DNA of 64,000 nucleotides, from positions 251,038,001 to 251,102,000 of the forward strand of contig OZ024743.1 of NCBI GenBank assembly GCA_964016885.1, in the 5' to 3' direction. The translations under genes were made by a program, and so were the position numbers. Of the stretch, positions 5,692 to 63,535 are shown in pieces (position 1 is the stretch's first letter; each line of letters starts with the position of its first letter). The notes beneath the pieces were generated by a model. It searched no databases. It had not been told where the DNA came from and saw only the letters and a program-made list of their open reading frames with translations. This stretch comes from Eledone cirrhosa (Eukaryota).

Positions 5692-8195
5692 AATAACGAA
5701 GGAAATGTGGTAAGGAACCAGGTGGACCATAACGCACCAAAGTACTCAATACTTGAGGTAGTAGAGTGGGTAATAGGAACCAGTAAGACCCCGACAGCTG
5801 AGCTCAAGCCGTTTCGACGGCTAATTCTGGACTAAATGAACATTTATCCTGGTATTTAAATAGCCGATCTTCTCAAGGGGTAATTCCATATATGGTCAAA
5901 GTGATTGTCAAAAATCAGTAGTAATTCTGTGGTTGCAAATTAGTAGGGGAGATGGTGGCTAAACCTGCCAGTAGGAGAAAGAGGGGAGGGGGTGGAGTAG
6001 ACCCAATCAAGCGTTGGTAGTGCCAGCTACAGCTGGGCATGAGGTCAAAGAAGATACAGGGGAGGGGGAGGGGGAGGAAGTCGGAACGGTAGGTAGAACA
6101 ATGGGGGGTAGAAATAGGAAAGAAAAATACTGAGAGTGAAGAAAAGCAAATAAGTGTAAAGAAAAAATTAAATTCTACGACCTAGGTGTCAGGCTATTGT
6201 TAGGCGAGAATAAAATAAAGAAAGAAAGAAAGAAGTAAATAAATAAATAAATAAATAAATAAGGAAATAAGTATAGAACTAGGTGGGACGAATTAGGCAA
6301 GGACCCTTTTAAGAGGTATAAGTACGTAAATGATACGGTGACTGGTCAACAAAAGGGGCCAAAATACTAAAGAGACTACCACGAAATAAACAATAAAGGT
6401 TTCCATCCCGGGCCAGCAACGACCCAGTGCAGCAAAGTGAACTTGTACGACATAATAATTCTGAGTCCCGAGAAAAATATATACTAATGCTAACTCTAAA
6501 AGATCTAAAACAAGCTACATGAAAGTTCGTACGAAATAAAGGTAGAATACGGAGAAATAAGTTCAGAATCCACCCCGCCCAGAAGAAAAGCGAAGCAAGA
6601 AATACTGAAACGAAAAAATAAGGCATAAGTGCCACTAAGAAATATAGAGGGCACAGAGAATAGTGGGAGCGGTCGGGAAAGGGGGGCAAGTATCCGGGGT
6701 CTAAGCCAACTGCTATAAAGGGCGGAGTCCGCCAAATCTATCAAAGACTAGGGGAGGGGGGGGGAGTGGGGGTACTAAGGCTACATGGGGCCAAAGGGCA
6801 GCCTCGGGTGGGCGAGAAAAGACGCCGACAAAGGAGAAGAGCTGGGGTAGAAGGACAAAGGAGAGAGGGGGGGAAGGAAATAAAGGATGCGATAAATGAA
6901 TACAAAGAAGATCTTACGTCTTCCTTGGCAAGCAGGGGTTACCCATTGAAAAATCGGCAACTGGGGTGTTATAGCCCTAGTCTACCCCCCCGGGTCATTA
7001 TGGGGTTTGAGGGCGAGGTAAGTCCTACGCAATCTATGTTTACATGCAGTAACCAGTAATCTTTGTATTCATTTATCGCATCCTTTATTTCCTTCCCCCC
7101 TCTCTCCTTTGTCCTTCTACCCCAGCTCTTCTCCTTTGTCGGCGTCTTTTCTCGCCCACCCGAGGCTGCCCTTTGGCCCCATGTAGCCTTAGTACCCCCA
7201 CTCCCCCCCCCTCCCCTAGTCTTTGATAGATTTGGCGGACTCCGCCCTTTATAGCAGTTGGCTTAGACCCCGGATACTTGCCCCCCTTTCCCGACCGCTC
7301 CCACTATTCTCTGTGCCCTCTATATTTCTTAGTGGCACTTATGCCTTATTTTTTCGTTTCAGTATTTCTTGCTTCGCTTTTCTTCTGGGCGGGGTGGATT
7401 CTGAACTTATTTCTCCGTATTCTACCTTTATTTCGTACGAACTTTCATGTAGCTTGTTTTAGATCTTTTAGAGTTAGCATTAGTATATATTTTTCTCGGG
7501 ACTCAGAATTATTATGTCGTACAAGTTCACTTTGCTGCACTGGGTCGTTGCTGGCCCGGGATGGAAACCTTTATTGTTTATTTCGTGGTAGTCTCTTTAG
7601 TATTTTGGCCCCTTTTGTTGACCAGTCACCGTATCATTTACGTACTTATACCTCTTAAAAGGGTCCTTGCCTAATTCGTCCCACCTAGTTCTATACTTAT
7701 TTCCTTATTTATTTATTTATTTATTTATTTACTTCTTTCTTTCTTTCTTTATTTTATTCTCGCCTAACAATAGCCTGACACCTAGGTCGTAGAATTTAAT
7801 TTTTTCTTTACACTTATTTGCTTTTCTTCACTCTCAGTATTTTTTCTTTCCTATTTCTACCCCCCATTGTTCTACCTACCGTTCCGACTTCCTCCCCCTC
7901 CCCCTCCCCTGTATCTTCTTTGACCTCATGCCCAGCTGTAGCTGGCACTACCAACGCTTGATTGGGTCTACTCCACCCCCTCCCCTCTTTCTCCTACTGG
8001 CAGGTTTAGCCACCATCTCCCCTACTAATTTGCAACCACAGAATTACTACTGATTTTTGACAATCACTTTGACCATATATGGAATTACCCCTTGAGAAGA
8101 TCGGCTATTTAAATACCAGGATAAATGTTCATTTAGTCCAGAATTAGCCGTCGAAACGGCTTGAGCTCAGCTGTCGGGGTCTTACTGGTTCCTAT
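5692..8195 (-). mobile_element. 5'-truncated Penelope-like element (family A) with ~1.13-kb near-perfect inverted pLTR/3'UTR arms (5773-6908 and 7060-8195)
   Basis: Arms are reverse complements with only homopolymer-length differences noticed. The 151-bp spacer encodes, on the minus strand, LLVTACKHRLRRTYLALKPHNDPGG*, colinear with the C-terminus of the PLE ORF at 29612 (AISACKHKLHKIFLYYSPTLYPSG*). Confidence 0.85.
8087..8180 (+). ncRNA. Type I hammerhead with U3-A8 core variant (mirror copy 5788-5881 minus; diverged copy 8771-8866)
   Basis: acccc-TTGAGAA-gatcggcta...tagccgtc-GAAA-cggct tgagctc agctg-TC-ggggt; stems I, II and III all pair; GUC triplet. Confidence 0.7.
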
Positions 8196-9572: not shown

Positions 9573-9755
9573 ATACAATAACAGAGAAAGCTTTAAGCTA
9601 AACTCTGACTGGTAACCATCTCACTCAATAAACATTAGGATATACGTTACTATAATCCCAATTTTGTGTTTGGGGTGCTAACTATATGTATTTTGTGGAA
9701 AGCCAGTTGTATTATTTTATATGAGATATAATTAAAATTAAAATATATCTCTCTT

Positions 9756-9878
9756 TCCAAACAATTGTTTCATTATAAGTTTTCTACAAGTTGGGAGAAT
9801 GTTTCCAGTTTATGTAGAAGCCTCACATATTTTTCTGTAAGAATATATGTAGGTGGGCACTTATAAATCATCAGTGGA
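9756..9878 (-). ncRNA. Type I hammerhead with long stem II
   Basis: Minus: tcca-CTGATGA-t ttataagt...acttataa t-GAAA-caattg-TT-tgga; 8-bp stem II base, palindromic ACAATTGT stem III, GUU triplet. Confidence 0.75.
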
Positions 9879-10500
9879 TGCCCATTAAACTTTGATATAA
9901 GAAAAAATTTCTTACCGCAGTTACCTTTCGTGTCCGCTAAGTCATCCCTTCACGCATCAAATGACCGCCAAATTTGAAATTTCAGCAGTCTTTAGACTGA
10001 GGAAATATCGTAGCGTCACGAAGCGGAAAAGGGAAGCAATTGCGAGTCACAAGAAAAGTAAAATAATATACACGTGGGTTAATTAGTTTTTTCAAAAACA
10101 TTATCAATCCTGCGTGTTAAGAACTCAATTAATTTAAAACAAATAAATGTATGCATGTATTAATTACACACGCATATAGATATTTTCTTAGGCTAAAAAC
10201 AGAGAAGTGATACCTAAATAACAAACAATATCTCATAACAGTAATAAATACGGAAAGTTACGTTTAAGAGGTATTTGGAAATATAAATCTCTGGCCAAAT
10301 CAAGAGTAAAATATTTAATACAATAACAGAGAAAGCTTTAAGCTAAACTCTGACTGGTAACCATCTCACTCAACAAACATTAGGATATACGTTAGTATAA
10401 TCCCAATTTTGTGTTTGGGGTGCTAACTATATGTATTTTATGGAAAGCCAGTTGTATTATTTTATATGAGATATAATTAAAATTAAAATATATCTCTCTT

Positions 10501-10623
10501 TCCAAACAATTGTTTCATTATAAGTTTTCTACAAGTTGGGAGAATGTTTCCAGTTTATGTAGAAGCCTAACATATTTTTCTGTAAGAATATATGTAGGTG
10601 GGCACTTATAAATCATCAGTGGA
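10501..10623 (-). ncRNA. Type I hammerhead, tandem partner of 9756-9878
   Basis: Same core and stems, 745 bp away. Confidence 0.75.
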
Positions 10624-10942
10624 TGCTCATTAAACTTTGATATCAGAAAAAATTTCTTACCGCAGTTACCTTTCGCGTCCGCTAAGTCATCCCTTCACGC
10701 ATCAAATGACCACCAAATTTGAAATTCCAGCAGTCTTTAGACTGAGGAAATATCGTAGCGACACGAAGTGGAAAAGGGAGGCAATCGCGAGTCACAAGAA
10801 AAGTAAAATAATATACACGTGGGTTAATTAGTTTTTTCAAAAACATTATCAATCCTGCGTGTTAAGAACTCAATTAATCTAAAAAAAATAAATGTATGCA
10901 TGTATTAATTACACACGCATATAGATATATATATATATGTGT

Positions 10943-11087: not shown

Positions 11088-11159
11088 GATGTGTTGGTGC
11101 AAATGGTAGCACAGTGGTCCGGATAACCAAAGATTTGGGTTCGACTCCCATGTACGTCA
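11088..11159 (+). tRNA. tRNA-like cloverleaf (pseudo-tRNA or SINE head), copy 1 of a 271-bp tandem unit
   Basis: 72 nt; acceptor gatgtgt/gtacgtc, D arm gtgc/gcac, anticodon arm tggt-ccggata-acca (lacks U33), T arm tggg-ttcgact-ccca; TTTTT shortly downstream. Confidence 0.6.
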
Positions 11160-29611: not shown

Positions 29612-31741
29612 CTATCCGCTAGGGTATAACGTGGGGCTGTAATACAGGAAAATTTTGTGCAATTTATGTTTACAAGCCGAAATTGCCTCAGATTTTTTGT
29701 TTAAGATGTGGTCTGTAGCGTAGAGTATTTCCAGGGCCTCAGCGGCGCAGAGGTCACATGGTCTTTTATTTCCGTTATACGATCTAGCCCTAGCTAGGAT
29801 CTCCCAGTGTAACTTATATTGGGTGTGGTTGTCTTTTAGACTCCAGATATAAGCTGAAAGTGACGTCATATTCCTTCTTAGAGGGTAACGAAAAGAATGG
29901 GTATGCATGTAAAGACGCTGCTTGAAACTATTGGCGGTTAACCCTATGTAGGCCCTACGGGACGTGGGTGTTACAACCTTACAATTGTAGACAATGTTAC
30001 TAGAGAGGCATTTCCCGGATAGGGGGCAATCAGCCCGATTCCTACAATTACAGTTAGTACTACCTACAGGGTTGCACGTGTTCCTACGGCTAGGTAGTTT
30101 AGCTAAATTTGAAGCTGTGATGTTATGTGCAAGGTTAGGAGTCGTAGAGTAAGAAATTTTAATAGTATTTCTATTAAAAATTTTACTATATTTATGTGTA
30201 GGGGGGAAATGCTTCGTAATAAGGGAAAGAAAGATCTTAGCTAATGGTGTGGCCACCTCCATATTATATGGTGGGTTACACCAACAAATGCGACGGGATC
30301 TATTTCTTCTAGGTCTATTTTCGTACACTGTATATGCTACCTTATCGACAAATCCACTTCGAGCAAGAGCTTCATTGTAATAAGTGGAATGGTCGTTGAA
30401 AATGCGCTCGTTGGTGGAAAGACGGGAAAGCCTCAACGAAACGTTTCTTACCAGGTTCTTGGTTATGCTGGCAGGATGGTTGGAATGCTTACTTATGTAA
30501 TTAAGCGTATCATTCGGCTTTCTATACGGGTAATACAACCCATTCAATAAATTGAGGGTAACGTCGAGGTAATTAACGACCGAGAGATTGGCCTCAACCT
30601 GTATAGAGAGATTGAAGTCTTTAAAGAAAGCTGTGAGTTCTTTTCTGAACCTGTCGCAAGCACGAGGTCCGCACTTAGTCATGGTCAAAAGACCATCGTC
30701 ACGGTACAAACCACCACCCGCGTTGGGGAATTCGTCCTTGATAGAGAAAAGAAGGAAAAGGCCAATAAGATCAGTAACCTCCGCAGAATCACTGGCGCCC
30801 ATACTCATGTCGAATGGGGTACTATTGGATTTTTCAATCCAAATAGAGTCGTCGAAATTAATCACCGACTTTCGGGCATTAAGGATGACATCAACTTCAA
30901 AATCCTTAACCACTGTGAGTGTTTTAGCGAAATTGATAGCTCTAAGGAGAAGTGGTAAAGTGATGGAGGAGTAGTAATTGTTGATGTCGAATTGGATAAA
31001 ACGGCAATGTTCCTTGTTACATATGCCGTTGAACCAATCAATCACCGCGAAAGAATTGTTCCACAGTGCGAGAGGTGCCAAACTTCTTATTTCAGGTATA
31101 ATTCTATCAAGAATCGTTTTACTAAGTCTACCTAAATCGGACTTCGTAGGGTTAATAAGCCGAATAGAGGGGTTGTTCGGAAAATTGGATTTGTGGTCCT
31201 TCAGGGTAAAGTGGGGAGAGATAGGGTCCAGGGGTTCGGTCCGGTCCAGGATGTTGAGATCAGATGTGATTTTAAACCCAGCATCGTTGATTTCATTGAT
31301 GACGCACCGATTAGTTTTACGGTAATCCTTAGTTACAGCATTATGTAGTAGTTGATGGTAAGTACTGCGCTCCACTTAATATAGGTTGCCAGTTTTGTCG
31401 GAATGGATGTGCACGGTGTTAGAATCCTTAATAGAACGAATTCTATTCTTCAGGTCTTGCTGGAAGGAATTGCTCCTATTCCGAAATTTGATATTCCGAA
31501 TGAGTTCCAAGACATCATTTTCGAAGGGTAGCAATACTGGGTTCCACGGAGGGTTATTATAAGTTTTAAATCCAAATTTATCCTGTTTGTTGTCTGCTTT
31601 TCGCGGATTAACGAAATAAAAGGCACGCCAACGCAACCTTTTAATGAACGCGTCTGTTTTCTGTATCAGGAGTTTTAGGTATGTTTTCCTGCTTGGTACG
31701 GGTATGTTCTTTGTAGAAATATTCAGATGTTGTTTCTGCAT
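29612..31741 (-). pseudogene. PLE ORF (~709 codons: RT, Cys-rich linker, GIY-YIG) with a single in-frame TAA at 31376-31378
   Basis: ORFs 31376-31741 and 29612-31375 are contiguous and in frame (DKTGNLY*VERS); FDINNYYSSI, FDMSMGA, YRDDG, YLDVTL, CNCRNRADCPL, NIVY...YIGLT...FKQR motifs. Confidence 0.92.
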
Positions 31742-32027
31742 GATGAATATAAGTCAGTAGAGTGCTCAACCGAAGGAGCCAAGACTTAGTATATCTTATA
31801 GATTTCCTAAGGCAATTGTCATATTAAACGTAAACATTAGCTGCGAAAATATGAAATTCAAGTTTACAAGATTGGTTTTCACCGCTCCAATTAATGACGT
31901 ATTATTCGTTTTTTCCCGTTCTTTGCCAGCGAACGTTACCACGAACCAAAATATCGTCTTCCTGGTCTTCCTCCGGTTGCAACGTTTTTTGAAATATCCA
32001 GTTCTGCGTTTACAGATTGACTTTGTT

Positions 32028-32078
32028 AGTTTCAGAAGATCCCGTTAAGGGTGAAAGCAGCGATTCTTTGCTTAAACT
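32028..32078 (+). ncRNA. Hammerhead-like motif with CAGAAGA core in the inverted pLTR
   Basis: Identical fold to 28667-28717; three stems pair; CUU triplet. Confidence 0.55.
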
Positions 32079-32190
32079 TTAATCTGTTATTTTAATAAAT
32101 ATTTGCTCTACGGTTCTTATATATTTGATATATATTTATCATTATCTAGCCCTCTTTGGATTTTAGTCTTCATTTTATTATTATTACTAT

Positions 32191-34560
<2,370 letters not shown>

Positions 34561-35140
34561 TGTACGGCCACTACTTTATATCCATGTACTAGAACCCCTA
34601 CCGATGTGCTGAACGAGTGTGACTTTTTAGTCCAGCAGCGACTTGAAAACTCTGGTACAAACACTACACTTGTGACAATTATTGACACATAGTGCTGGGC
34701 CCATGGTACCATGTGACGACAAGTGCAGGGAGATCTCTAGATATAAAGCAATGCCTGTGCCGTGAAGCTTTTATAGTGAGCAAAGGCATTGCACAAAGCC
34801 AGTCCCACTCTCTTAACCAAGACGATATTTACCAAAAAGAAGAACAAGTCAACATCATTGGATACCATCAGGGTTGCAGGTGTTATATCAGAGTTTTCCT
34901 TCTCCTAGAATTCTGCCTTGACAAAAGCTAAGGGGTCATCTCTCCCGGTGATTTTGGATGGCCATTGACTCTTAAGAGCTCCTTTGCCCTTTGACAGGTT
35001 TTGTTTTTAGTCCTGAGGTTGTCCAAAGTCACCGTTCTCACGAAGAAACCTTGGTGGGGTTGCCAGTTTAGTCGCCAACGACCCGACCATGAGACAGGTT
35101 GTACTGGGATACATGTTACCAGTAACTGGTGACCTGACAT
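34561..35140 (-). mobile_element. Non-autonomous RTE-like LINE derivative, lacking the last ~25 nt
   Basis: Closely homologous to 40453-41060. Confidence 0.7.
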
Positions 35141-37887
<2,747 letters not shown>

Positions 37888-38087
37888 NNNNNNNNNNNNN
37901 NNNNNNNNNNNNNNNNNNNNNNNNNNNNNNNNNNNNNNNNNNNNNNNNNNNNNNNNNNNNNNNNNNNNNNNNNNNNNNNNNNNNNNNNNNNNNNNNNNNN
38001 NNNNNNNNNNNNNNNNNNNNNNNNNNNNNNNNNNNNNNNNNNNNNNNNNNNNNNNNNNNNNNNNNNNNNNNNNNNNNNNNNNNNNNN
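37888..38087. other. Assembly gap (200 N)
   Basis: Run of N. Confidence 0.99.
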
Positions 38088-38171
38088 AAACACACAGACA
38101 AACCGGTTTTTAGAGTCATGCTGGTTTTTGAGGGAACACCTTCCCTCTATTCTCCAGAAAGCCAGACAAGG

Positions 38172-38216
38172 AATATTGAACTAGTTTCGTTGTTGTTACA
38201 ACTCATCAGCAATATT
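38172..38216 (-). ncRNA. Canonical minimal type I hammerhead
   Basis: Reverse complement of 38548-38592. Confidence 0.9.
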
Positions 38217-38547
38217 TACCTATCTACCGGCCCTTCTGGAGAATTGTAAAAGCACATATGGTTATATGCTTTTTCTATGAAAATTAGTAGTGGGCAGACT
38301 AATTTGCATAGAGTGTGAGTACGCACCGGTTCAGCGGAGACGATAAAAACAAATAACGAAACGAAATGAAATTTCGTTTCGTTTGTAACTCACTTTTGTA
38401 TGACTGACGCTTAAACAATTAAGTTAAAAAATTACATCTACATATGCATACTGAAATACTAGTGTGTATATGAATACACACACGTATACATATGTATATG
38501 TAACAAGTCTTTCACAACAATTCTCCAGAAGGGCCGGTAGATAGGTA

Positions 38548-38592
38548 AATATTGCTGATGAGTTGTAACAACAACGAAACTAGTTCAATATT
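38548..38592 (+). ncRNA. Canonical minimal type I hammerhead
   Basis: aatattg-CTGATGA-gttgt aaca acaac-GAAA-ctag-TT-caatatt; 7-bp stem I, 5-bp stem II, palindromic ACTAGT, GUU triplet. Confidence 0.9.
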
Positions 38593-38887
38593 CCTTGTCT
38601 GGCTTTCTGGAGAATAGAGGGAAGGTGTTCCCTCAAAAACCAGCATGACTCTAAAAACCGGTTTGTCTGTGTGTTTACATACAGAATAGCTGGGTGCTCA
38701 CAGTAAAGCAACCAGTGAAAGACTTGTTACATATACATATGTATACGTGTGTGTATTCATATACACACTAGTATTTCAGTATGCATATGTAGATGTAATT
38801 TTTTAACTTAATTGTTTAAGCGTCAGTCATACAAAAGTGAGTTACAAACGAAACGAAATTTAATTTCGTTTCGTTATTTGTTTTTAT

Positions 38888-38920
38888 ATACATATATATA
38901 TTCACATATATATATACATA

Positions 38921-38958
<38 letters not shown>

Positions 38959-39130
38959 CATATATACATACATACATATATGTACATATATATATACATA
39001 CATACATGTATATACATACATACATATATGTACATATATATATACATACATACATGTATATACATACATACATATATGTACATATATATATACATACATA
39101 CATATATATACATACATACATATATGTACA

Positions 39131-39180
<50 letters not shown>

Positions 39181-39182
39181 CA

Positions 39183-39218
<36 letters not shown>

Positions 39219-39267
39219 CATATATATATACATACATATATATATATATACATATATATATACATAC

Positions 39268-39298
<31 letters not shown>

Positions 39299-39727
39299 CA
39301 TATATATATACATACATATATATATATATACATATATATATACATACATACATATATATACATATATATATATACATACATATATATACATATATATATA
39401 TACATACATATATATACATATATATATATACATACATATATATACATATATATATATACATACATATATATACATATATATATATACATACATATATATA
39501 TACATATATATATACATACATACATATATATATACATATATATATATACATACATACATATATATATACATATATATATATACATACATATATATATACA
39601 TATATATATATACATACATATATATATACATATATATATACATACATATATATATACATATATATATACATACATATATATATACATATATATATACATA
39701 CATATATATATATATATACAAATATAT

Positions 39728-39760
<33 letters not shown>

Positions 39761-39774
39761 CATACATACATATA

Positions 39775-39806
<32 letters not shown>

Positions 39807-40059
39807 CATATATATATACATACATATATATATACATACATATATATATATACATACATACATATATATACATACATACATACATATATATATACATACA
39901 TACATATATATATATATACATACATACATATATATATATATACATACATACATATATATATATATACATACATACATACATATATATATACATACATACA
40001 TACATATATATATACATACATACATATATATATATATACATACATACATATATATATAT

Positions 40060-40090
<31 letters not shown>

Positions 40091-40159
40091 CATACATACA
40101 TATATATACATATACATATATATATACATACATACATATATATACATATACATATATAT

Positions 40160-40192
<33 letters not shown>

Positions 40193-40273
40193 CATACATA
40201 CATATATATATATATACATATATATATACATACATACATATATATATACATATATATATACATACATACATAT

Positions 40274-40306
<33 letters not shown>

Positions 40307-40452
40307 CATACATATATATATATATATACATACATACATATATATATATATATACATATATACATATACTTACATACATATATATATATACATATATATA
40401 TACATACATACATATATATATATATACATATATATATACATACATATATATA
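38888..40452. repeat. Compound TA/TACA microsatellite
   Basis: Direct reading. Confidence 0.97.
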
Positions 40453-41060
40453 TGGTGGCTGCCAACTCGTTTTCGAGTACGGCCACTACTTTATATCCAT
40501 GTAGGAGAACCTCTACCAATGCGCTGAACGAATGTGACTTTTTAGTCCAGCCAGCGACTTGAAAACTCTGGTACAAACACTACACTTGTGACAATTATTG
40601 ACACATAGTGCTGGGCCCATGGTACCATGTGACGACAAGTGCAGAGAGATCTCCAGATATAAAGCAATGCCTGTGCTGTGAAGCTTTTATAGTGAGCAAA
40701 GGCACTGCACAAAGCCAGTCCCACTCTCTTAACCAAGATGATATTTACCAAAAAGAAGAACAATTCAACATCATTGGATACCATCAGGGTTGCAGGTGTT
40801 ATATCAGAGTTTTCCTTCTCCTAGAATTCTGCCTTGACAAAGGCTAAGGGGTCATCTCTCCCGGTGATTTTGGATGGCATTGACTTTAAGAGCTCCTTTA
40901 CCCTTTGACAGGTTTTGTTTTTAGTCCTGCAGGATGTCCAAAGTCACCCTCCTCACCAAGAAACCTTGGTGGGGTTGCCAGTTTAATCGCCAACGACCCG
41001 ACCATGAGACAGGTTGTACTGGGATACATGTTACCAGTAGCACCAACTGGTGACCTGACA
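40453..41060 (-). mobile_element. ~600-bp non-autonomous RTE-like LINE derivative (putative 5' region joined to the ORF 3' end and tail)
   Basis: Minus strand ends with a C2H2 remnant [22 protein letters not shown], typical of RTE/BovB-type C-termini, then hairpin gtggc..actcg-aaaa-cgagt..gccac and (TA)n. Confidence 0.7.
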
Positions 41061-46019: not shown

Positions 46020-46100
46020 TGGGTAGTCCATTTTGGTGTAATTGTAAGACAGTTATCTGACATACAACAGTTGTGAGTTCGAATCTCACAGGCGATACTG
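46020..46100 (+). mobile_element. tRNA-like SINE head remnant
   Basis: A-box-like tggtgtaattgt and B box gagttcgaatc at normal spacing. Confidence 0.45.
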
Positions 46101-53856: not shown

Positions 53857-54495
53857 TACACATATACAAATATATATATATATATATATATATATTGTTA
53901 TACTTGGGGAGGGTCATATTTGCGTAATATTGCCAGAATTAATAACAGAACACACTCACTGCTTGGTTGGTTTTCGCTTCTCGCTGTCTTTTATATATAT
54001 ATATCTGCGATCTAACTTACTCGGTCCTCAATGTTGCCATTGACTGACCGACGGTCAAAAATAATACAGATACAATATAGACACAAACACATATATATAT
54101 AGTTTACATAATTTACATAAATCTTTCGTTGCACATCTGCAACATCGTCAGTGGTGTTATATTCTTTGTTCCTCCTGTTGTGTTGTATGCCTACGCCATT
54201 TTTTATTCAGTCTGTCTATATATTTATTTATTTATTTATTTGCTTGTTTGTTTATCTTATTTTATTTTGTCTTCTTTGCGCATGCGTTTGCGTGTGTGTA
54301 TAGTGTTATGTGTGCTGTGTGACTAGTGTGTATAGTGTTGTGTCTGCTGGGTGACTAGTGTGTGTTTATGTGCTTGTTGTTATTGTGCTTGTGTATGTAT
54401 TTATTTATCTTATTTTATTTTATTTACTTATTTATACTTCTCTTAGGTCAGTGTTGTTTGTTTGGGTGTTGTTGTTGTTCCACTCATTCTTTCTG

Positions 54496-56076
54496 CGACG
54501 TCGACACAGACGAACTGGGCCTCCTACTTAGACTTACCTACGACACTGACTACCTAGACAGCCATGACCTTAGATGTTTCTGCCCTAGTAGACCTATAAG
54601 AGGTAGACCCGCCACCATAACCTCAATGGCTAAAAAGACTCCCATAGGAAGGTGGATTGGGTGGACCAAAGCTATACGGACCCCCAAAACACTGATCAGG
54701 TAAGAAAAATGGTCGCACATGCAATAGGGGCTAGTATCAAAACTACCCTAAAGGGCCACATATTTAAGTTCAATGAGAAAATCTACACCCAAAATGAGGG
54801 AGCAGCCATCGGCGTCAGCATAGCTGGTGATGTTGCCAACCTTTTCATGGTATGGTGGGAAAGGAGACTTAAAGATCTCCTTAATGAAAGCTCCATAGAC
54901 CTCATCATGTACTCTCGTTATGTAGACGATATCAATATAGTTATAAGAACACCCCCACTAGAGAGCACTAACAAGTTTGATTTAGAACGTAGCACGATGG
55001 AAAGCATCCAGCAGATAGCTAATTCCATACACCAGAGTATAACTGTAACTATCGACTTCCCTTCCAAACACCCTAACAATAGACTACCTGTATTAGACAC
55101 AGAACTCTGGATTAACGCTATAGACGAGCGAGCCCAAATTCTCCACTCACACTATGCTAAGCCCATGGCCTCCAAATACCTGATACTCAAAAACTCAGCA
55201 ATGTCCAGTAGTGCTAAGTTTAATATTCTGATCGCAGATTTGGTACGAGTGATGAAGAATGTGTCCAACATGTGCGACCCAACAGAAATGGAAAGACACA
55301 TCCAACACTTCATCAACCGCATGCAGTTCTCTGGCTACAACCAAAGAGACAGAGTCAGAGTATACGAAGGAGCCATGGAAAAGTATAAGACCCTCATAGA
55401 ACTGGACATGAAAGGAATTTGCCCACTATACAGGAGCAAATCATGGAATAGCTTAGATAGGGCTAGACATAAGATAGGGAAGGCCACATCATGGTACGAC
55501 AACCAGAGATATCTGAGTGTCATGTTTGTGGACGCCACCCCTGGAGGGAAATTAGCTAACCAGTGTAGAAAGGCCCTGAGAAAGACCCACTTAAAAATAA
55601 AGGTGGTAGAAAAGCCAGGAACCACCATAAAATCCCTGATCAGCAAAACCTACCCTTTTAAGAAAACCCACTGTACCAATAGGAAATGTATCATATGTAA
55701 GGTGAACCCCCGGATAAACTGTAAAACTAGAAACGTAGTCTATAGCATAAGATGTACAGAGGTTACTTGCAGAAACACGACAACAACATACATAGGTGAG
55801 ACAGCTCGTAGCATAGGTGAAAGGATAGACCAACACTGGGGGGAACTAAAAGGACGAAAAAACGGGTCAGTACTGTACGAACATGCTAGACAACAACATG
55901 ACGGTAACATAGACAACATAGAAATTAGAATAATATCTAAACATAGGAATGACCCAGCAGATAGGCAAATCAGAGAGGCCAGTGAAATAGAAATTAGAAG
56001 ACCAAAGCTAAACAGAAAGAATGAGTGGAACAACAACAACACCCAAACAAACAACACTGACCTAAGAGAAGTATAA
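54496..56076 (+). CDS. PLE RT (motif B onward) + GIY-YIG endonuclease; 5'-truncated, frameshift near 54685
   Basis: QNEGAAIG, RYVDD, LPVLD, CxxxxCxxC linker, NVVYSIRC...YIGETARSIGERIDQH...RQIREA...LN. Confidence 0.9.
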
Positions 56077-56354
56077 ATAAGTAAATAAAATAAAATAAAA
56101 TAAGATAAATAAATACATACACAAGCACAATAACAACAAGCACATAAACACACACTAGTCACCCAGCAGACACAACACTATACACACTAGTCACACAGCA
56201 CACATAACACTATACACACACGCAAACGCATGCGCAAAGAAGACAAAATAAAATAAGATAAACAAACAAGCAAATAAATAAATAAATAAATATATAGACA
56301 GACTGAATAAAAAATGGCGTAGACATACAACACAACAGGAGGAACAAAGAATAT

Positions 56355-56427
56355 AACACCACTGACGATGTTGCAGATGTGCAACGAAAGATTTATGTAA
56401 ATTATGTAAACTATATATATATGTGTT
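56355..56427 (+). ncRNA. Hammerhead-like motif in the pLTR (mirror copy ~54085-54157 minus; related copy ~58210-58268 minus)
   Basis: CTGACGA-t gttgca gatg tgcaac-GAAA-g...c-TA; stem II perfect, stem I interrupted by (TA)n. Confidence 0.5.
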
Positions 56428-56669
56428 TGTGTCTATATTGTATCTGTATTATTTTTGACCGTCGGTCAGTCAATGGCAACATTGAGGACCGAGTAAGTTA
56501 GATCGCAGATATAAAAGACAGCGAGAAGCGAAAACCAACCAAACAGTGAGTGTGTTCTGTTATTAATTCTGGCAATATTACGCAAATATGACCCTCCCCA
56601 AGTATAACAATATCTGTTTCGACACACGATTTCATATAAAAAACCTCGCTAAACTATATATATATATAT

Positions 56670-57242
56670 AAATGGAATAGAATGAAACGAAATTTCATTT
56701 CTCACTCTTTATATATACATACATGCACATATATATATATATATGCACGTATCGGTTTACCGAACATTTATTATAATGCTCGGTTTGTTTGTTTATAAAC
56801 AAACAGCCCGAATTACGCCGTGCAGTGTTTAAGCAACCACGTCACCTTTTTGTTCAACACTGACACAGGAACGATGTACTAGTTTCAAGCTTATTAGCTA
56901 TCGTCAGCATCGTATACCTTCCTGCCAGATGGTTGAACGTCTGAAAGTATATACTTTCCTCATGCATATTAACGGCTGAGCAGCCTAATTTGCATATCGA
57001 GTGAGTTCAGTCGGCCGGGCACACCGAAAACGATAAATGGAATAGAATGAAACGAAATTTCATTTCTCATTCTTAGTACGTCACTTACTTAAATGTAAGT
57101 ATGCATGTATGTATACGCACATACATATATGTATACAGACGTACAGTAGTATGTATATGTATACATACATGCACACATATATATATGCACGTATCGGTTT
57201 ACCGAACATTTATATTAATGCTCGGTTTGTTTGTTTGTAAAC
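56670..57242 (-). mobile_element. Retrozyme-like element, family C: ~440-nt unit with terminal redundancy
   Basis: gcacgtatcggtttaccgaac at ~56746 and ~57187; aaatggaatagaatgaaacg at ~56670 and ~57035; homologous to 26616-27230. Confidence 0.8.
56871..56913 (-). ncRNA. Minimal type I hammerhead
   Basis: acgatg-CTGACGA-t agct aata agct t-GAAA-ctag-TA-catcgt; compensatory stem I change relative to 26980. Confidence 0.88.
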
Positions 57243-57383
<141 letters not shown>

Positions 57384-57794: not shown

Positions 57795-57986
57795 ATAGGA
57801 ACAAGTAAGACCCCGACGGCTGAGCTCAAGCCGTTTCGACGGCTAATTCTGTACAGAATTAGCCGTCGAAACGGCTTGAGCTCAGCCGTCGGGGTCTTAC
57901 TTGTTCCTATTACCCACTCTACTACCCTAAGTATTGAGTACTTTGGTGCGTTATGGTCCACCTGGTTCCTTACCACATTTCCTTCG

Positions 57987-57990: not shown

Positions 57991-58024
<34 letters not shown>

Positions 58025-58032
<8 letters not shown>

Positions 58033-58470
58033 ATACTTGGGGAGGGTCATATTTGTGTAATAATATTGCCAGAATTAATAACAGAACACACTCACTGTTT
58101 GGTTGGTTTTCGCTTCTGTGTCTTTTATATCGGTTAATTTAATTTATTGGGTCGTCAATGTTGCCATTGACTGACCAACGGTCAAAAATACAGATACAAT
58201 ATAGACACAAACACATATATAGTCTATCAAAGTTCTTTCGTTGCACATCTGCAATATCGTCAGTGGTGCTATTATGTTTCCTCCCGTTGCATTGTATGCT
58301 TACGCCATCTTTATTTCGTCTGTTTATTTATTTATTTATTTATATATATGTTATAAGAACAGATTAAAGTTTAAGAAAAGAATCGCTGCTTTCAACCTTT
58401 CAACATTAAGGGGATCTTCTGAAACTAAAAAAATAATCTATGAACGCAGAAGTAAATATTTCGAGAAATG
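58025..58470 (-). mobile_element. Two adjacent solo pLTR fragments (related to 53892-54240 and to 28645-28760)
   Basis: 58025-58340 matches 53892 onward; 58355-58465 matches 28655 onward. Confidence 0.8.
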
Positions 58471-59045: not shown

Positions 59046-59620
59046 TAGAGCACAAAGCATTACACAAATAAAAGAAAAGAAGTACTCAATGCATATTGCT
59101 CAGTGTTAACACTGTACATGACTAGAAGGTTCAGTGAAATGAGTCTTGGAGTTATGTTCACAATATATACACATATATGTGTGTGTGTGTTTGTGTGCAT
59201 GTGTGTATATATAAATTTAGATATGTGTGCCTGAGCATCGGTAAATGTATACATATATGTTTTAGTGTATGTGTATGTATGTGTTGATGTGCATAGATAT
59301 ACATGGTTTTGTGTGTGAACATTTATATATTGTGTGTAAGCATGTCTATATGTGTGCATACATACGTGTGTGTGTTAGCATGCTTACATATACACGTCTG
59401 TGTATATTAGTGTGCATGCACATACTCATGTGTTAGTGTGTGTGTTTAAACACATATATGTTAGTGTGAATATTTTGGTAACATTCTTTTGCTCCTTTGA
59501 CTGTTGGGAAGGTCTATCTGTAAGTTCTGAGAATGTTTCTGTGGAATACCTGAGAATCTAGCTAGAGGAAGTATTATCTCTAATCTCATTAATATGATAG
59601 GTGTTTCCACATTACCAGTT

Positions 59621-60513
59621 GTGTAATAGACCTCTCTAGCTACTGAGATGTAGTGTTTGTAACATCCATTGTCCTCTCATGTCTCTGGTACTAATCAACT
59701 GTGTAATAGACCTCTCTAGCTACTGAGAGGTAGTGTTTGTAACATCCATTGTCCTCTCATGTCTCTGGTACTAATCAACTGTGTAATAGACCTCTCTAGC
59801 TACTGAGAGGTAGTGTTTGTAACATCCATTGTCCTCTCATGTCTCTGGTACTAATCAACTGTGTAATAGACCTCTCTAGCTACTGAGAGGTAGTGTTTGT
59901 AACATCCATTGTCCTCTCATGTCTCTGGTACTAATCAACTGTGTAATAGACCTCTCTAGCTACTGAGATGTAGTGTTTGTAACATCCATTGTCCTCTCAT
60001 GTCTCTGGTACTAATCAACTGTGTAATAGACCTCTCTAGCTACTGAGATGTAGTGTTTGTAACATCCATTGTCCTCTCATGTCTCTGGTACTAATCAACT
60101 GTGTAATAGACCTCTCTAGCTACTGAGAGGTAGTGTTTGTAACATCCATTGTCCTCTCATGTCTCTGGTACTAACCAACTGTGTAATAAACCTCTCTAGC
60201 TACTGAGATGTAGTGTTTGTAACATCCATTGTCCTCTCATGTCTCTGGTACTAATCAACTGTGTAATAGACCTCTCTAGCTACTGAGAGGTAGTGTTTGT
60301 AACATCCATTGTCCTCTCATGTCTCTGGTACTAACCAACTGTGTAATAAACCTCTCTAGCTACTGAGAGGTAGTGTTTGTAACATCCATTGTCCTCTCAT
60401 GTCTCTGGTACTAATCAACTCTGTAATAGACCTCTCTAGCTACTGAGATGTAGTGTTTGTAACATACATTGTCCTCTCATGTCTCTGGTACTAACCAACT
60501 GTGTAATAGACCT
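59621..60513. repeat. Homogeneous tandem array, 80-bp unit x ~11.2
   Basis: gtgtaatagacctctctagctactgaga... recurs every 80 bp from 59621 to 60501 with few variant sites. Confidence 0.97.
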
Positions 60514-60971
60514 GTGTAATAGATCCTCATCATCGTTTAATGTCTATCTTCCACGCTAGCATGAGTTAGACGGAATATATATATATATGTATAGGCATAT
60601 TTGTGTATATATATATATATATGTATGTATAGGCATATATGTGTATATATATATATATATGTATATGTGTATATGTAAATATGTATATTTGTGTGTATAT
60701 ATATATATATATATGTATATGTAAATATGTATATATATATTTTTGGGTGTGTATATATGATATGCAAATATGTATATATATATTTTTGGGTGTGAATATA
60801 TATTTATGTAAATATGTATATATATATATTTGTGTGTATATATATATATATATATATATGTATATGTAAATATGTACATATATATTTTGGGGTGTGTATA
60901 TATGTATATGTAAATATATATATATATATTTTTGGGTGTATATATATATGTATATGTAAATATGTATATAT

Positions 60972-63535
60972 ATGGAGGCCATGGAGTTGGCACAAGGAAT
61001 GAGGAAGGATTCAGACTTCTAGAATTCTGCGACGCCAATGACATGTCGATATGTAACACAAACTTTAAAAAACCCGACAACCACTTGATCACCTATAGAT
61101 CAGGGGAGCACTCTAGTCAGTTAGATTTTATCCTCATCAGAGCACGTGACAGATGGACGGTCGTAAACACAAAATCCTTCCCTAGTGAGGAATGTACATC
61201 CCAACATAGCTTAGTTGTCAGCGACCTCACGGTCAGAACTAGACGAACCCGGAAACAGAGGCTAACCTGGAGAAGAAAGATCTGGAAGCTGAAAGTCCCC
61301 TCAACCAGTAACAGATTTAAAGATATTTTACTCAACGCCTACGACAGTAAAGAAGAACAGATAGAGACATTTAACGTAGAAGAGAACTGGGAGTTCCTAA
61401 AAAATAACTTACTAGAGGCGACGGATGAGGTTTGTGGCTGGAGTAAGACCACAAGCAGGAGGAGAGTGATTTGGTGGTGGAACAATAAGGTAGATGAAGC
61501 AGTCAAGGCCAAGAGACAGGCATGGAAAGAATGGAAGAACGGGGGGAGCAGGGTACATTACATAGAGACCAAGAGGGAAGCTAGGCGACAAGTATACTTA
61601 GCTAGGAGGGAAGCAGAGGATAGAAAATTCAAGCATGTTTTACAACGTGAGGACGAGAAACAGGAGGTATTCAAGATTGCGAGGCAGTGTGTCAGAGATA
61701 GTTGTGATGTCATTGGAGAGAAGTGTATCTGGAATGATAAAGGTGAGCTTGCCCTCACAAGTGCTGAGAAGAAAGATGCATGGAAGAGTCATTATGATAG
61801 ATTACTAAATGAGGAGAATGCATGGGAAGAAGAGACCCTACCCCATGTAGACCCTATAGAGGGACCAGCAGTACAAGTCAGCGGCAGCGTAGTAAGTAAG
61901 GGAATCAGAGATATGAAGATGGGGAAGGCAACCGGTCCATCGGGTATAGCTGCCGAGATGCTGAAGGCATCTGGGTCTGTAGGTCACACTATAACCACAC
62001 GTATCGTTAACCAGGTAATACTAGAAGGGGCCATACCAAAAGATTGGTGCAGTAGCATCATTGTCAACTGCTACAAATGTAAAGGCGATGCACTAGAAAG
62101 AGGAAACTATAGAGGTATAAAGTTGATGGACCAGGTCATGAAAGTAACAGAAAGAGTTATAGCACAGCTGATTAGGGACCGGGTGAATATAGACGAGATG
62201 CAATTTGGGTTTGTACCAGGGAGAGGCACCACTGATGCCCTCTTCCTTGTGAGGCAATTACAGGAAAAGTACCTAGCTAAAAGTAAGCCACTCTACTTGG
62301 CATTTGTCGACCTTGAGAAAGCCTTTGACAGAGTTCCACGTGCGGTAATCTGGTGGGCTCTTAGAAAACTAGGAGTAGATGAATGGCTTGTGAAAGCGGT
62401 ACAAGCCATGTATAGGGGAGCAGTCAGCAAAGTTAGGGTTAGCAATGAGTATTGCGAGGAATTTAGCGTACAGGTTGGGGTCCACCAGGGCTCTGTTCTT
62501 AGCCCTCTCCTGTTCATCATAGTCCTGCAGGCAATAACGGAGGAGTTTAAGACCGGATGCCCATGGGAACTCCTGTATGCTGATGACCTCGCACTCATAG
62601 CTGAATCTATGGTAGAACTAGAGAATAAATTCCAAACCTGGAAGCAGGGACTAGAGAGAAAGGGCCTCAAAGTCAACATGACAAAGACTAAGGTCCTTGT
62701 AAGTAGACGAGAAAACAGAACCCAGATCCCCTCAGGGAAATGGCCTTGCTCAGTATGTAGGAAAGGTGTAGGTAGGAACTCCATTCTCTGCCCCAAATGC
62801 AAACAATTGGTACACAAGAGATGTAGCGGGATCTCAGGAAGCTTAATTAAGAATGTAGGATTCACATGCAGCAGCTGTGCTGAAACAGCAAGCAAACAGC
62901 CACAGGAAACAAGTACCACCAATCTCTGGGAGGGCCCTGTAGAAACAGACAGCTTCTGCTACCTAGGTGACCGAATTAGCAACGGAGGTGGGTGCTCAGA
63001 AAGTACAATAACTAGGGTAAGAACGGGATGGAAGAAGTTTAGGGAACTACTACCACTGCTAGCTGCAAAAGGCTTCTCCCTCAGAATGAAAGGCAGACTG
63101 TATGATGCGTGTATCCGAACAGCGATGTTGCATGGTAGTGAGACCTGGGCGCTGAAGGTGGAAGACTTACGTAGATTAGAGAGAAACGAAGCCTGCATGC
63201 TCCGATGGATGTGTAACAGTAATATACGTGAACGACAAAGCATAAAGGAATTGAGAGAGAGACTGAGCATAAGAGGAATCAAATGCTGCGTGCAGGAGAG
63301 GCGGTTACGCTGGTATGGACATGTGATGCGTATGAAGGATGACAGCTGCATAAAAAGGTGCAGAGCACTAGAAGTTGATGGAAACCGCGAAGTGGGGAGA
63401 CCCAAGATGACTTGGGATGAGGTGATAAAAGCCGACCTTACCCAACTACACCTCTCAAAGACAATGACACACGACCGTGACTTCTGGCGTCACGCAGTAA
63501 TACAGGGTACCCGACCTCCCATGGGTACATGCTGA
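60972..63535 (+). CDS. RTE-clade LINE ORF: partial APE endonuclease + RT + PHD-like Cys cluster; 5'-truncated
   Basis: [82 protein letters not shown]. Confidence 0.95.

Follow-up and report, generated by a model that had tools for sequence, protein, structure and literature searches.

A 466-nt hammerhead ribozyme unit inserted as two inverted arms in Eledone cirrhosa, with a probable Penelope-type insertion footprint

Results

Two inverted arms merge into one closed unit

The stretch analyzed here, called the window throughout, comprises 64,000 nucleotides of Eledone cirrhosa contig OZ024743.1 (assembly GCA_964016885.1). Within it lies an island of about 800 nt, with long (TA/TACA)n tracts to either side and an adjoining gap of 200 N (Table 1). 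The island consists of two arms joined 5'-to-5' at 38515|38517, each built from a hammerhead ribozyme (HHR) and segments that we call X, B, and, in the left arm only, Y. HHR-X is identical between the arms across 160-161 common bases and segment B agrees at 172/173 bases, so that the shared bases agree at 333/334. Merging the arms yields a closed unit of 466 nt, and the minus-strand arm aligns to a head-to-tail dimer of this unit with 1 mismatch in 428. The unit has a GC content of 0.36, a longest stop-free frame of 60 codons, and a longest ATG frame of 43 codons. The single ORF combining reverse transcriptase (RT) and GIY-YIG domains that characterizes autonomous EN+ Penelope-type elements (PLEs) was not found within it.

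Table 1 Coordinates of the inverted-arm locus, its flanks, the two paralogous loci, and the in-window control elements
Feature	Position in window	Strand	Remarks
Paralogous locus L26, 423-nt unit	26622..27232	+	Inverted short left arm and partial tandem of ~1.2 units; one HHR at 26986
Second in-window control, PLE-like ORF	28652..32183	-	Inverted terminal copies with one common terminus
Left (TA/TACA)n tract	35520..37887		TACA 188, TGTA 0 on the + strand; true left flank across the gap uncertain
Assembly gap, 200 N	37888..38087		Conceals the left arm's 3' terminus; termination at the fixed site would imply 211 hidden nt
Left arm, inverted	38088..38515	-	B-Y-HHR-X; 5' end 38515; 428 nt visible, truncated by the gap
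Type I hammerhead, left copy	38156..38227	-	Predicted cleavage after 38179 on the - strand; HH9 match, E 3.9e-8
Segment Y, 95 nt	38248..38342	-	Left arm only; hairpin conserved with the paralogs; invariant octamer-like 10-mer TATGCAAATT
Segment B, left copy	38343..38515	-	Runs past the fixed 3' site TTTAT^CG (38343/38342) into Y, a partial tandem
Single base between the two 5' ends of the arms (inversion junction)	38516..38516		
Right arm	38517..38887	+	HHR-X-B; 371 nt; 5'-truncated; terminates at the fixed 3' site
Type I hammerhead, right copy	38537..38608	+	HH9 match; helices and core checked
Hairpin 12 nt upstream of the fixed 3' end	38847..38875	+	Hairpin at the equivalent place in both paralogs
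Right (TA/TACA)n tract	38888..40450		TACA 187, TGTA 6; polarity equals that of the left tract
Coding Penelope-type element, in-window control	53892..56613	+	Inverted 5'-truncated left arm of ~600 nt; arms end at one 3' terminus
Paralogous locus L57, 442-nt unit	56668..57247	-	Partial tandem of ~1.3 units; one HHR at 56907; ends exactly at TTTAT^, then (AT)n

The first-pass annotation of this DNA had proposed that the two arms carry differently permuted copies of one ORF-free unit of about 465 nt, arranged HHR-X-B on the plus strand and B-Y-HHR-X on the minus strand from 38514, and that they entered in a single insertion. Both orders were recovered in the arm alignment, although the minus-strand arm starts at 38515; the circle does close, one base longer than proposed, and the longest ATG frame of 43 codons agrees with a unit lacking an ORF. 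At five sites both arms carry the locus allele where nearly all of the family depth in one public sequencing run (X1, described below) differs, and at the lone mismatch between the arms it is the plus-strand arm that has the family allele. As the arms have five family-rare alleles in common, they point to one template source and one insertion event, the latter as proposed.

Flanks and gap

The two TA tracts have the same C-on-plus polarity, and the right tract is therefore not an inverted copy of the left. It should be noted that neighboring TA tracts are of equal polarity too, hence adjacency across the gap is not proven by polarity. TSDs are not distinguishable inside the (TA)n flanks of the locus. 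Two direct copies of a 560-nt sequence (34567-35124 and 40482-41039; 95.9% identity) flank the gap inside the TA tracts, and they may belong to a repeat family or reflect overlapping haplotypes at a scaffold join. Because the junction of the arms lies 428 nt inside the contig, a haplotype overlap would alter the choice of left flank but not the junction itself. A simple fold-back artefact was considered and excluded, as the arms are only 26% identical when compared in mirror register about the junction and the TA tracts share one polarity.

The hammerhead and the predicted folds of the unit

Both hammerhead copies match Rfam Hammerhead_HH9 with 38.6 bits (E 3.9e-8), below the gathering score of 52, and an Rfam scan of the whole window at the gathering threshold returned no ribozyme. 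In the right copy, helix I pairs 38548-54 with 38586-92 (7 bp), the core starts at 38555, helix II spans 38562-75 (5 bp), and the palindromic helix III at 38579-84 has 1-2 bp. The cleavage triplet, GUU, has its last base at 38585, which is where the first-pass annotation had placed the cleavage site. Its description of a single perfect, minimal hammerhead stood in part: a type I hammerhead is present in each arm, but it is not strictly minimal or perfect, its catalytic fold as a monomer (+0.1 kcal/mol) lying far above the MFE fold (-13.6 kcal/mol). According to the available text of Cervera & de la Pena (2014, PMC4209133), hammerheads with short palindromic helices III require a second copy for good cleavage.

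Folded as a circle, the unit scores z -12.8 relative to 60 shuffled sequences, a strong fold, and its antisense strand, at z -8.0, is well folded too. Across the target locus and its two paralogs, 15/67 consensus pairs have changed on both sides, a count that comes from three sequences only. Counted together, these two-sided changes and the circular fold suggest selection at the RNA level, read with the caution due to three sequences and an antisense strand that folds as well. In sequencing reads of the family, both partners of one helix II pair are commonly changed, 38563 (T>A) and 38574 (A>T), and some family copies have GUC in place of GUU as cleavage triplet.

A pattern combining the octamer described below with the hammerhead had no match in metagenome contigs and none in viral contigs. 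A looser hammerhead pattern picked up 16 metagenome stretches. Proper helices were missing from all 15 stretches amenable to scoring, and 0/16 showed similarity to the units in BLAST. With improper helices and no such similarity, these matches were put down to chance. The Rfam miRNA matches on segment B are low-complexity TA/CA sequence far under the gathering score.

Paralogous loci and a fixed 3' end

Two further loci in the window, L26 and L57, are related to the target locus at about 60-62% identity (BLAST); their global alignment scores against it are 130 and 146, compared with shuffle maxima of -49 and -53 (100 shuffles each). Full periods are present in both, 423 nt in L26 and 442 nt in L57. 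At E 0.01, Rfam returned no match for the L26 hammerhead, despite the presence of the core and helix I. Three elements were kept across the three loci: the hammerhead, the Y hairpin with TATGCAAATT, and a hairpin just before the end of B. We propose the last of these, at 38847-38875 in the target locus, as a candidate RT start signal.

The plus-strand arm stops at TTTAT^, where the minus-strand arm continues into Y, and L57 stops at the homologous position. In L26, the 3' end of the left arm falls about 4 nt short of this site and that of the right arm about 57 nt short. Three of the four visible 3' ends in the window thus cluster at one site, exactly or within about 4 nt. A common 3' terminus combined with 5' truncation, a feature of non-autonomous PLEs, was found at these window ends and in X1 contigs, and two other such features, a partial tandem (pLTR-like) and an inverted 5' copy, were found as well. 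(TA)n follows the visible 3' ends of all three loci and also occurs in X1 loose ends; the window itself is TA-rich. Two or more consecutive full HHR units were seen at 0/3 window loci, the partial tandems measuring 1.2-1.3 units and the left arm of the target being truncated by the gap. Among the window matches listed, there was no autonomous PLE partner with a common terminal sequence.

The octamer ATGCAAAT occurs at 38309-38302 (-), 26906-26913 (+), and 56995-56988 (-), in each of the three loci 80-100 nt upstream of the HHR core and on the 5' side of the conserved hairpin; these are three of the five octamers of the window. The octamer in Y is a candidate internal promoter. Newt satellite 2 has an snRNA-type promoter, which offers a parallel.

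Penelope-type and other elements in the window

Penelope-type elements of at least three kinds were found in the 64 kb (53892-56613, 58010-58350, 28652-32183, 15468-18090, and 19028-20400). Two of them served as controls for arm structure. The element at 53892-56613 has a weak RVT_1 match (E 0.0025), and its C-terminus resembles the GIY-YIG ORF at 19028-19780 (E 1e-8). The ORF of the element at 28652-32183, which had no match in a Pfam search, is one that we take to be PLE-like from its motifs and weak similarity. Degenerate HHR cores were seen in the Penelope-type family at 54-56 kb, at positions 54151, 56362, and 58263.

The composition, tRNA-like repeats, and retroelement ORFs of the window suggest a repeat-rich animal genome. 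Non-LTR retrotransposon ORFs with RVT_1 are present at 21843-23711 and 60914-63535, the latter also having a PHD-finger match, and tRNA-like matches at 11088-11159 and 46027-46097 are probably SINE heads. A 1128-bp inverted repeat (5782-6908 / 7060-8186; 99.8% identity, 150-bp spacer) contains in its termini a palindromic element that is present too at 2466-2637 and 57805-57976. A 576-nt direct tandem with 97% identity and a period of about 745 lies at 9588-10908, where HHR-like core words on both strands failed the helix test. A minisatellite with an 80-nt period occupies 59620-60513.

The family in public sequencing runs

Of 23 public runs listed, 20 share part of the stretch; none is recorded as RNA. 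Four were compared (X1, X4, X5, and X21) over 38248-38714, the region that contains the unit once. The unit belongs to a multi-copy family, represented by 827 X1 contigs and 3109 raw genomic X21 reads, which are mostly 90-99+% alike. Copy number was judged without summing contig depth: an X1 contig depth of 2410, compared with 5.8-13.5 for single joints, indicates at least hundreds of copies.

The Y-to-HHR joint was found in 243 raw genomic reads (36 starts) and in one contig each of X4 and X5, the X-to-B joint was read by one X4 loose end, and the B-to-Y joint was crossed by one X4 contig. As all three joints occur in reads or contigs, the unit order also closes in other copies. At the 3' site, 11 X1 contigs exit at 38343 with a loose end carrying (AT)n, the largest X1 row among the matches listed. 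In X4, a contig starting at 38343 (depth 233.5) overlaps a read-through contig (depth 167.7) by 30 nt.

Six further candidate inversion joints lead from antisense on the left to sense on the right. Each was present in a single contig of low depth whose shorter side measures 25-30 nt, and no two share a 5' breakpoint. Three of the six are clear of the palindrome (38313|38597, 38412|38520, and 38465|38605), and the other three are ambiguous, lying in or beside it. The locus's own junction, 38515|38517, had no spanning record among the matches listed, in a comparison that skipped 38476-38504.

Other observations concern single runs. About 107 genomic reads of X21, all with one start, carry sense-strand A>G changes at 38638, 38639, and 38653-38657; the cleanest read has 15 differences, with more A>G at 38582, 38611, 38645, and 38677. 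A 5' T or A neighbor is found at 10/11 of the A>G sites, taking the family allele at 38644. These reads possibly derive from ADAR-edited RNA copied back into DNA; they may also stem from a single molecule copied repeatedly or from a sequencing artefact. In X5 (organism B), contig 16 covers Y-HHR-X in 223 nt with 8 differences over 220 nt under another species label, and it represents a close relative, horizontal transfer, or contamination. In X4, unlike X1, the family depth is just a few times that of a single inversion joint, and contigs make the circuit of the whole unit; this small run of unrecorded kind may be a transcriptome or a reduced library.

Discussion

Probable Penelope-type reverse transcription from a fixed site

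We consider it probable, at roughly 0.75, that the locus is one insertion of a 466-nt hammerhead element whose arms were made by a trans-acting Penelope-type RT, with a fixed site primed twice. In the mechanism that we propose, a partial-tandem copy would be transcribed into a B-Y-HHR-X-B or longer RNA, and a PLE protein would nick both strands of the (TA)n tract and begin cDNA internally on each strand, just 3' of the hairpin. One cDNA would halt at 371 nt and the other would run beyond one unit (639 nt if it had the same start, 211 nt of it hidden in the gap), after which repair would join both 5' ends, adding one base. Since the 3' end of the left arm is inside the gap, a common start of both arms is not observed at the target locus itself. 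The involvement of a PLE RT in trans, as the first-pass annotation had suggested, is likely, judging from the insertion footprint.

Both arms and both paralogous loci cross the HHR cleavage site, which argues for an RNA template of more than one unit; to this extent, the circular or concatemeric template proposed earlier is supported. A cleaved linear monomer (HHR-to-HHR) was rejected as template: the fixed start lies 302 nt from the cleavage site, so that such an RNA would give at most 302 nt unless the RT jumps, while the plus-strand arm measures 371 nt and both arms cross the site. The template can instead be supplied by a circle re-ligated after cleavage, by a template jump, or by a partial-tandem transcript left uncleaved; the last of these, as a linear RNA, explains the same DNA. 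The DNA alone does not discriminate between linear and circular templates; within the Penelope-RT reading, we put an uncleaved linear multimer slightly above even odds and a cleaved, re-ligated circle slightly below. The predicted strong circular fold and the published circRNAs favor the circle; the weak monomer ribozyme, the in vitro result of Frangieh (2024) described below, and the fact that no window copy reaches two units favor linear RNA.

Weighing other origins of the arms

In TPRT copies, the 3' end of the element marks the RT start and the 5' end the RT stop. The visibly different ends of the arms are 5' ends, and the permutation therefore reflects two stopping points rather than two entry points. 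This bears directly on the earlier proposal that reverse transcription entered a circular RNA at two different points, or on its variant, L1-style twin priming with an internal second primer, both of which we now regard as unlikely. Such a template would suit the crossing of the cleavage site by both arms, the strong fold of the unit as a circle, and, in the available text of PMC7229834, related retrozyme circRNAs in coral, mussel, and axolotl; the off-site end of the L26 right arm also suggests that alternative starts may occur. However, 3' ends gather at one site (3/4 in the window, and 11 X1 contigs), and the coding in-window elements with inverted arms have one common terminus. The permutation is best explained by RT starting at one fixed point on an RNA longer than a unit, with 5' truncation differing between the arms. 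That an autonomous PLE lost its ORF through 5' truncation and left these pieces behind as ordinary pLTR remnants is distinctly unlikely. Hammerheads do reside in pLTRs, many PLE-type ORFs lie in the window, and opposite-strand HHR pairs 100-700 bp apart in Schistosoma belong to a set mostly ascribed, in the accessible part of PMC4209133, to truncated PLEs. Yet an ORF has no place in the unit, whose joints close on themselves (minus-strand arm, B-Y and Y-HHR; plus-strand arm, X-B), identical joints occur in other copies, and L26 and L57 have ORF-free full periods, by which this explanation is largely refuted. The unit is likely derived from a pLTR, and it moves on its own.

Two explanations would dispense with an RNA step or with a real inversion. 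An assembly or library chimera at the contig end, suggested by a left arm that adjoins the gap, near-identical arms, a junction unspanned among the matches listed, and the 560-nt sequence on both gap sides that could mark a haplotype-overlap join, is improbable: the arms form no fold-back, the right TA tract is not an inverted copy of the left, the arms differ at one site where the plus-strand arm has the family allele, and like joints occur in other copies and at L26, distant from the gap. More improbable still is a DNA-level origin, in which recombination or replication template switching rearranged one copy of a tandem satellite. A palindromic hairpin and TA tracts can promote inversions, and satellite amplification of retrozymes has been proposed in the available text of Li, Clavereau & Pollet (2026, bioRxiv 10.64898/2026.07.22.740005), but there is no array at the target locus, and many copies combine variable 5' ends with 3' ends that are fixed and lead into (AT)n. 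This combination is a pattern of reverse transcription.

A more ambitious extension of the Penelope-RT reading is doubtful at present. The family would be an abundant one of hammerhead circRNA elements with their own octamer-type promoter and Penelope-RT hairpin, each insertion would comprise two rolling-circle cDNAs made on opposite strands at one site, and ADAR-edited templates would occasionally be fixed in DNA. If this were true, the genome would directly record PLE enzymes mobilizing animal retrozymes from circles.

What is new in relation to earlier work

Several parts of this picture are already published. Circles were proposed as templates for more-than-unit reverse transcription by Cervera & de la Pena (2014, PMC4209133), and the definition of non-LTR retrozymes, the demonstration of their circRNAs, and the suggestion that PLEs are likely to drive them come from the same authors (2020, PMC7229834); Li (2026) tied retrozymes to pLTRs by phylogeny. 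The idea of a circular template and that of non-coding hammerhead circRNA units probably moved by PLEs are thus already in the literature. In the portions of PMC7229834 and Li (2026) available, the link between retrozymes and Penelope rests on ribozymes in common, co-occurrence, and pLTR similarity, with the mechanism left open. The words "inverted" and "microsatellite" are absent from the main text of PMC7229834, and neither a 3' end fixed internally nor (TA)n targets are mentioned for non-LTR retrozymes in the accessible parts of that paper and of Li (2026). Retrozyme insertions with inverted arms are undescribed in the accessible text of the open literature searched (including PMC5680766 and PMC8969392); they may be recorded in supplements, subscription papers, or Repbase. 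What is modestly new is the Penelope insertion footprint on a retrozyme-like unit, which itself bears the fixed internal start, the inverted 5' arm, the partial tandem, and the TA target.

Purified PLE protein nicks both strands of AT-rich DNA and extends them, its RT starts at one internal stem-loop for both strands on uncleaved RNA, and HHR mutants insert normally, so that the PLE needs no HHR cleavage (Frangieh 2024, PMC11167929). A 466-nt RNA with a defined start hairpin would be a handy substrate for this existing in vitro assay, which could test a circle versus an uncleaved linear template, as well as the purpose of the hammerhead.

Comparison with known systems

As far as the available descriptions go, metazoan non-LTR retrozymes are like the target unit in being non-coding, a few hundred bases long (51-972 bp reported), and low in GC (36%), in having one type I HHR with a short palindromic helix III and a predicted circle that pairs with itself, and in being multi-copy, found with PLEs, and proposed to be mobilized by them. 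The type I hammerhead and the small, low-GC unit without a protein-coding ORF were both found here. Unlike them, the target family has no full tandem dimer at the three window loci and one HHR per arm, and circRNAs have been shown for those retrozymes, whereas the target unit is known from DNA alone. An "active" retrozyme is defined in the available part of Li (2026) by tandem repeats with at least two consecutive full HHR units, and the target loci fall outside this tandem-dimer definition. Plant LTR retrozymes differ in carrying a type III HHR in direct LTRs, where the target has a type I hammerhead in inverted arms.

In the sections of Craig (2021, PMC8557442) available, an inverted 5'-truncated copy at the 5' end, partial tandems, and a microsatellite bias are standard for PLEs. 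The target shares these, together with 5' truncation, a pLTR-like partial tandem, and an HHR; it differs in having no RT or GIY-YIG ORF and in being whole at 466 nt. Closer in organization is MRC1, a non-autonomous PLE of Chlamydomonas (Craig 2021), which in the text available is likewise ORF-less, with pLTRs, head-to-tail copies, and dependence on a PLE in trans. Chlamys elements, according to the same portion of the literature, mostly lack canonical HHRs, while the target unit has one, and their non-autonomous members generally resemble the 3' end of the autonomous partner, none having been identified for the target unit among the window matches listed.

The most detailed parallel is Poseidon PAc of Anolis, studied in vitro (PMC11167929). 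This element is autonomous, its AC-rich stem-loop start and RT-binding motif lie inside the ORF, and two adjacent starts make a "tail", in contrast to the target locus, where no tail is resolved. It resembles the target in an internal stem-loop RT start downstream of the HHR, in AT-rich targets, in priming on both strands, and in copies that span an intact HHR. Overall, the target appears to behave like a PLE-moved retrozyme, and the features that we tested in its sequence fit a non-autonomous PLE-type element.
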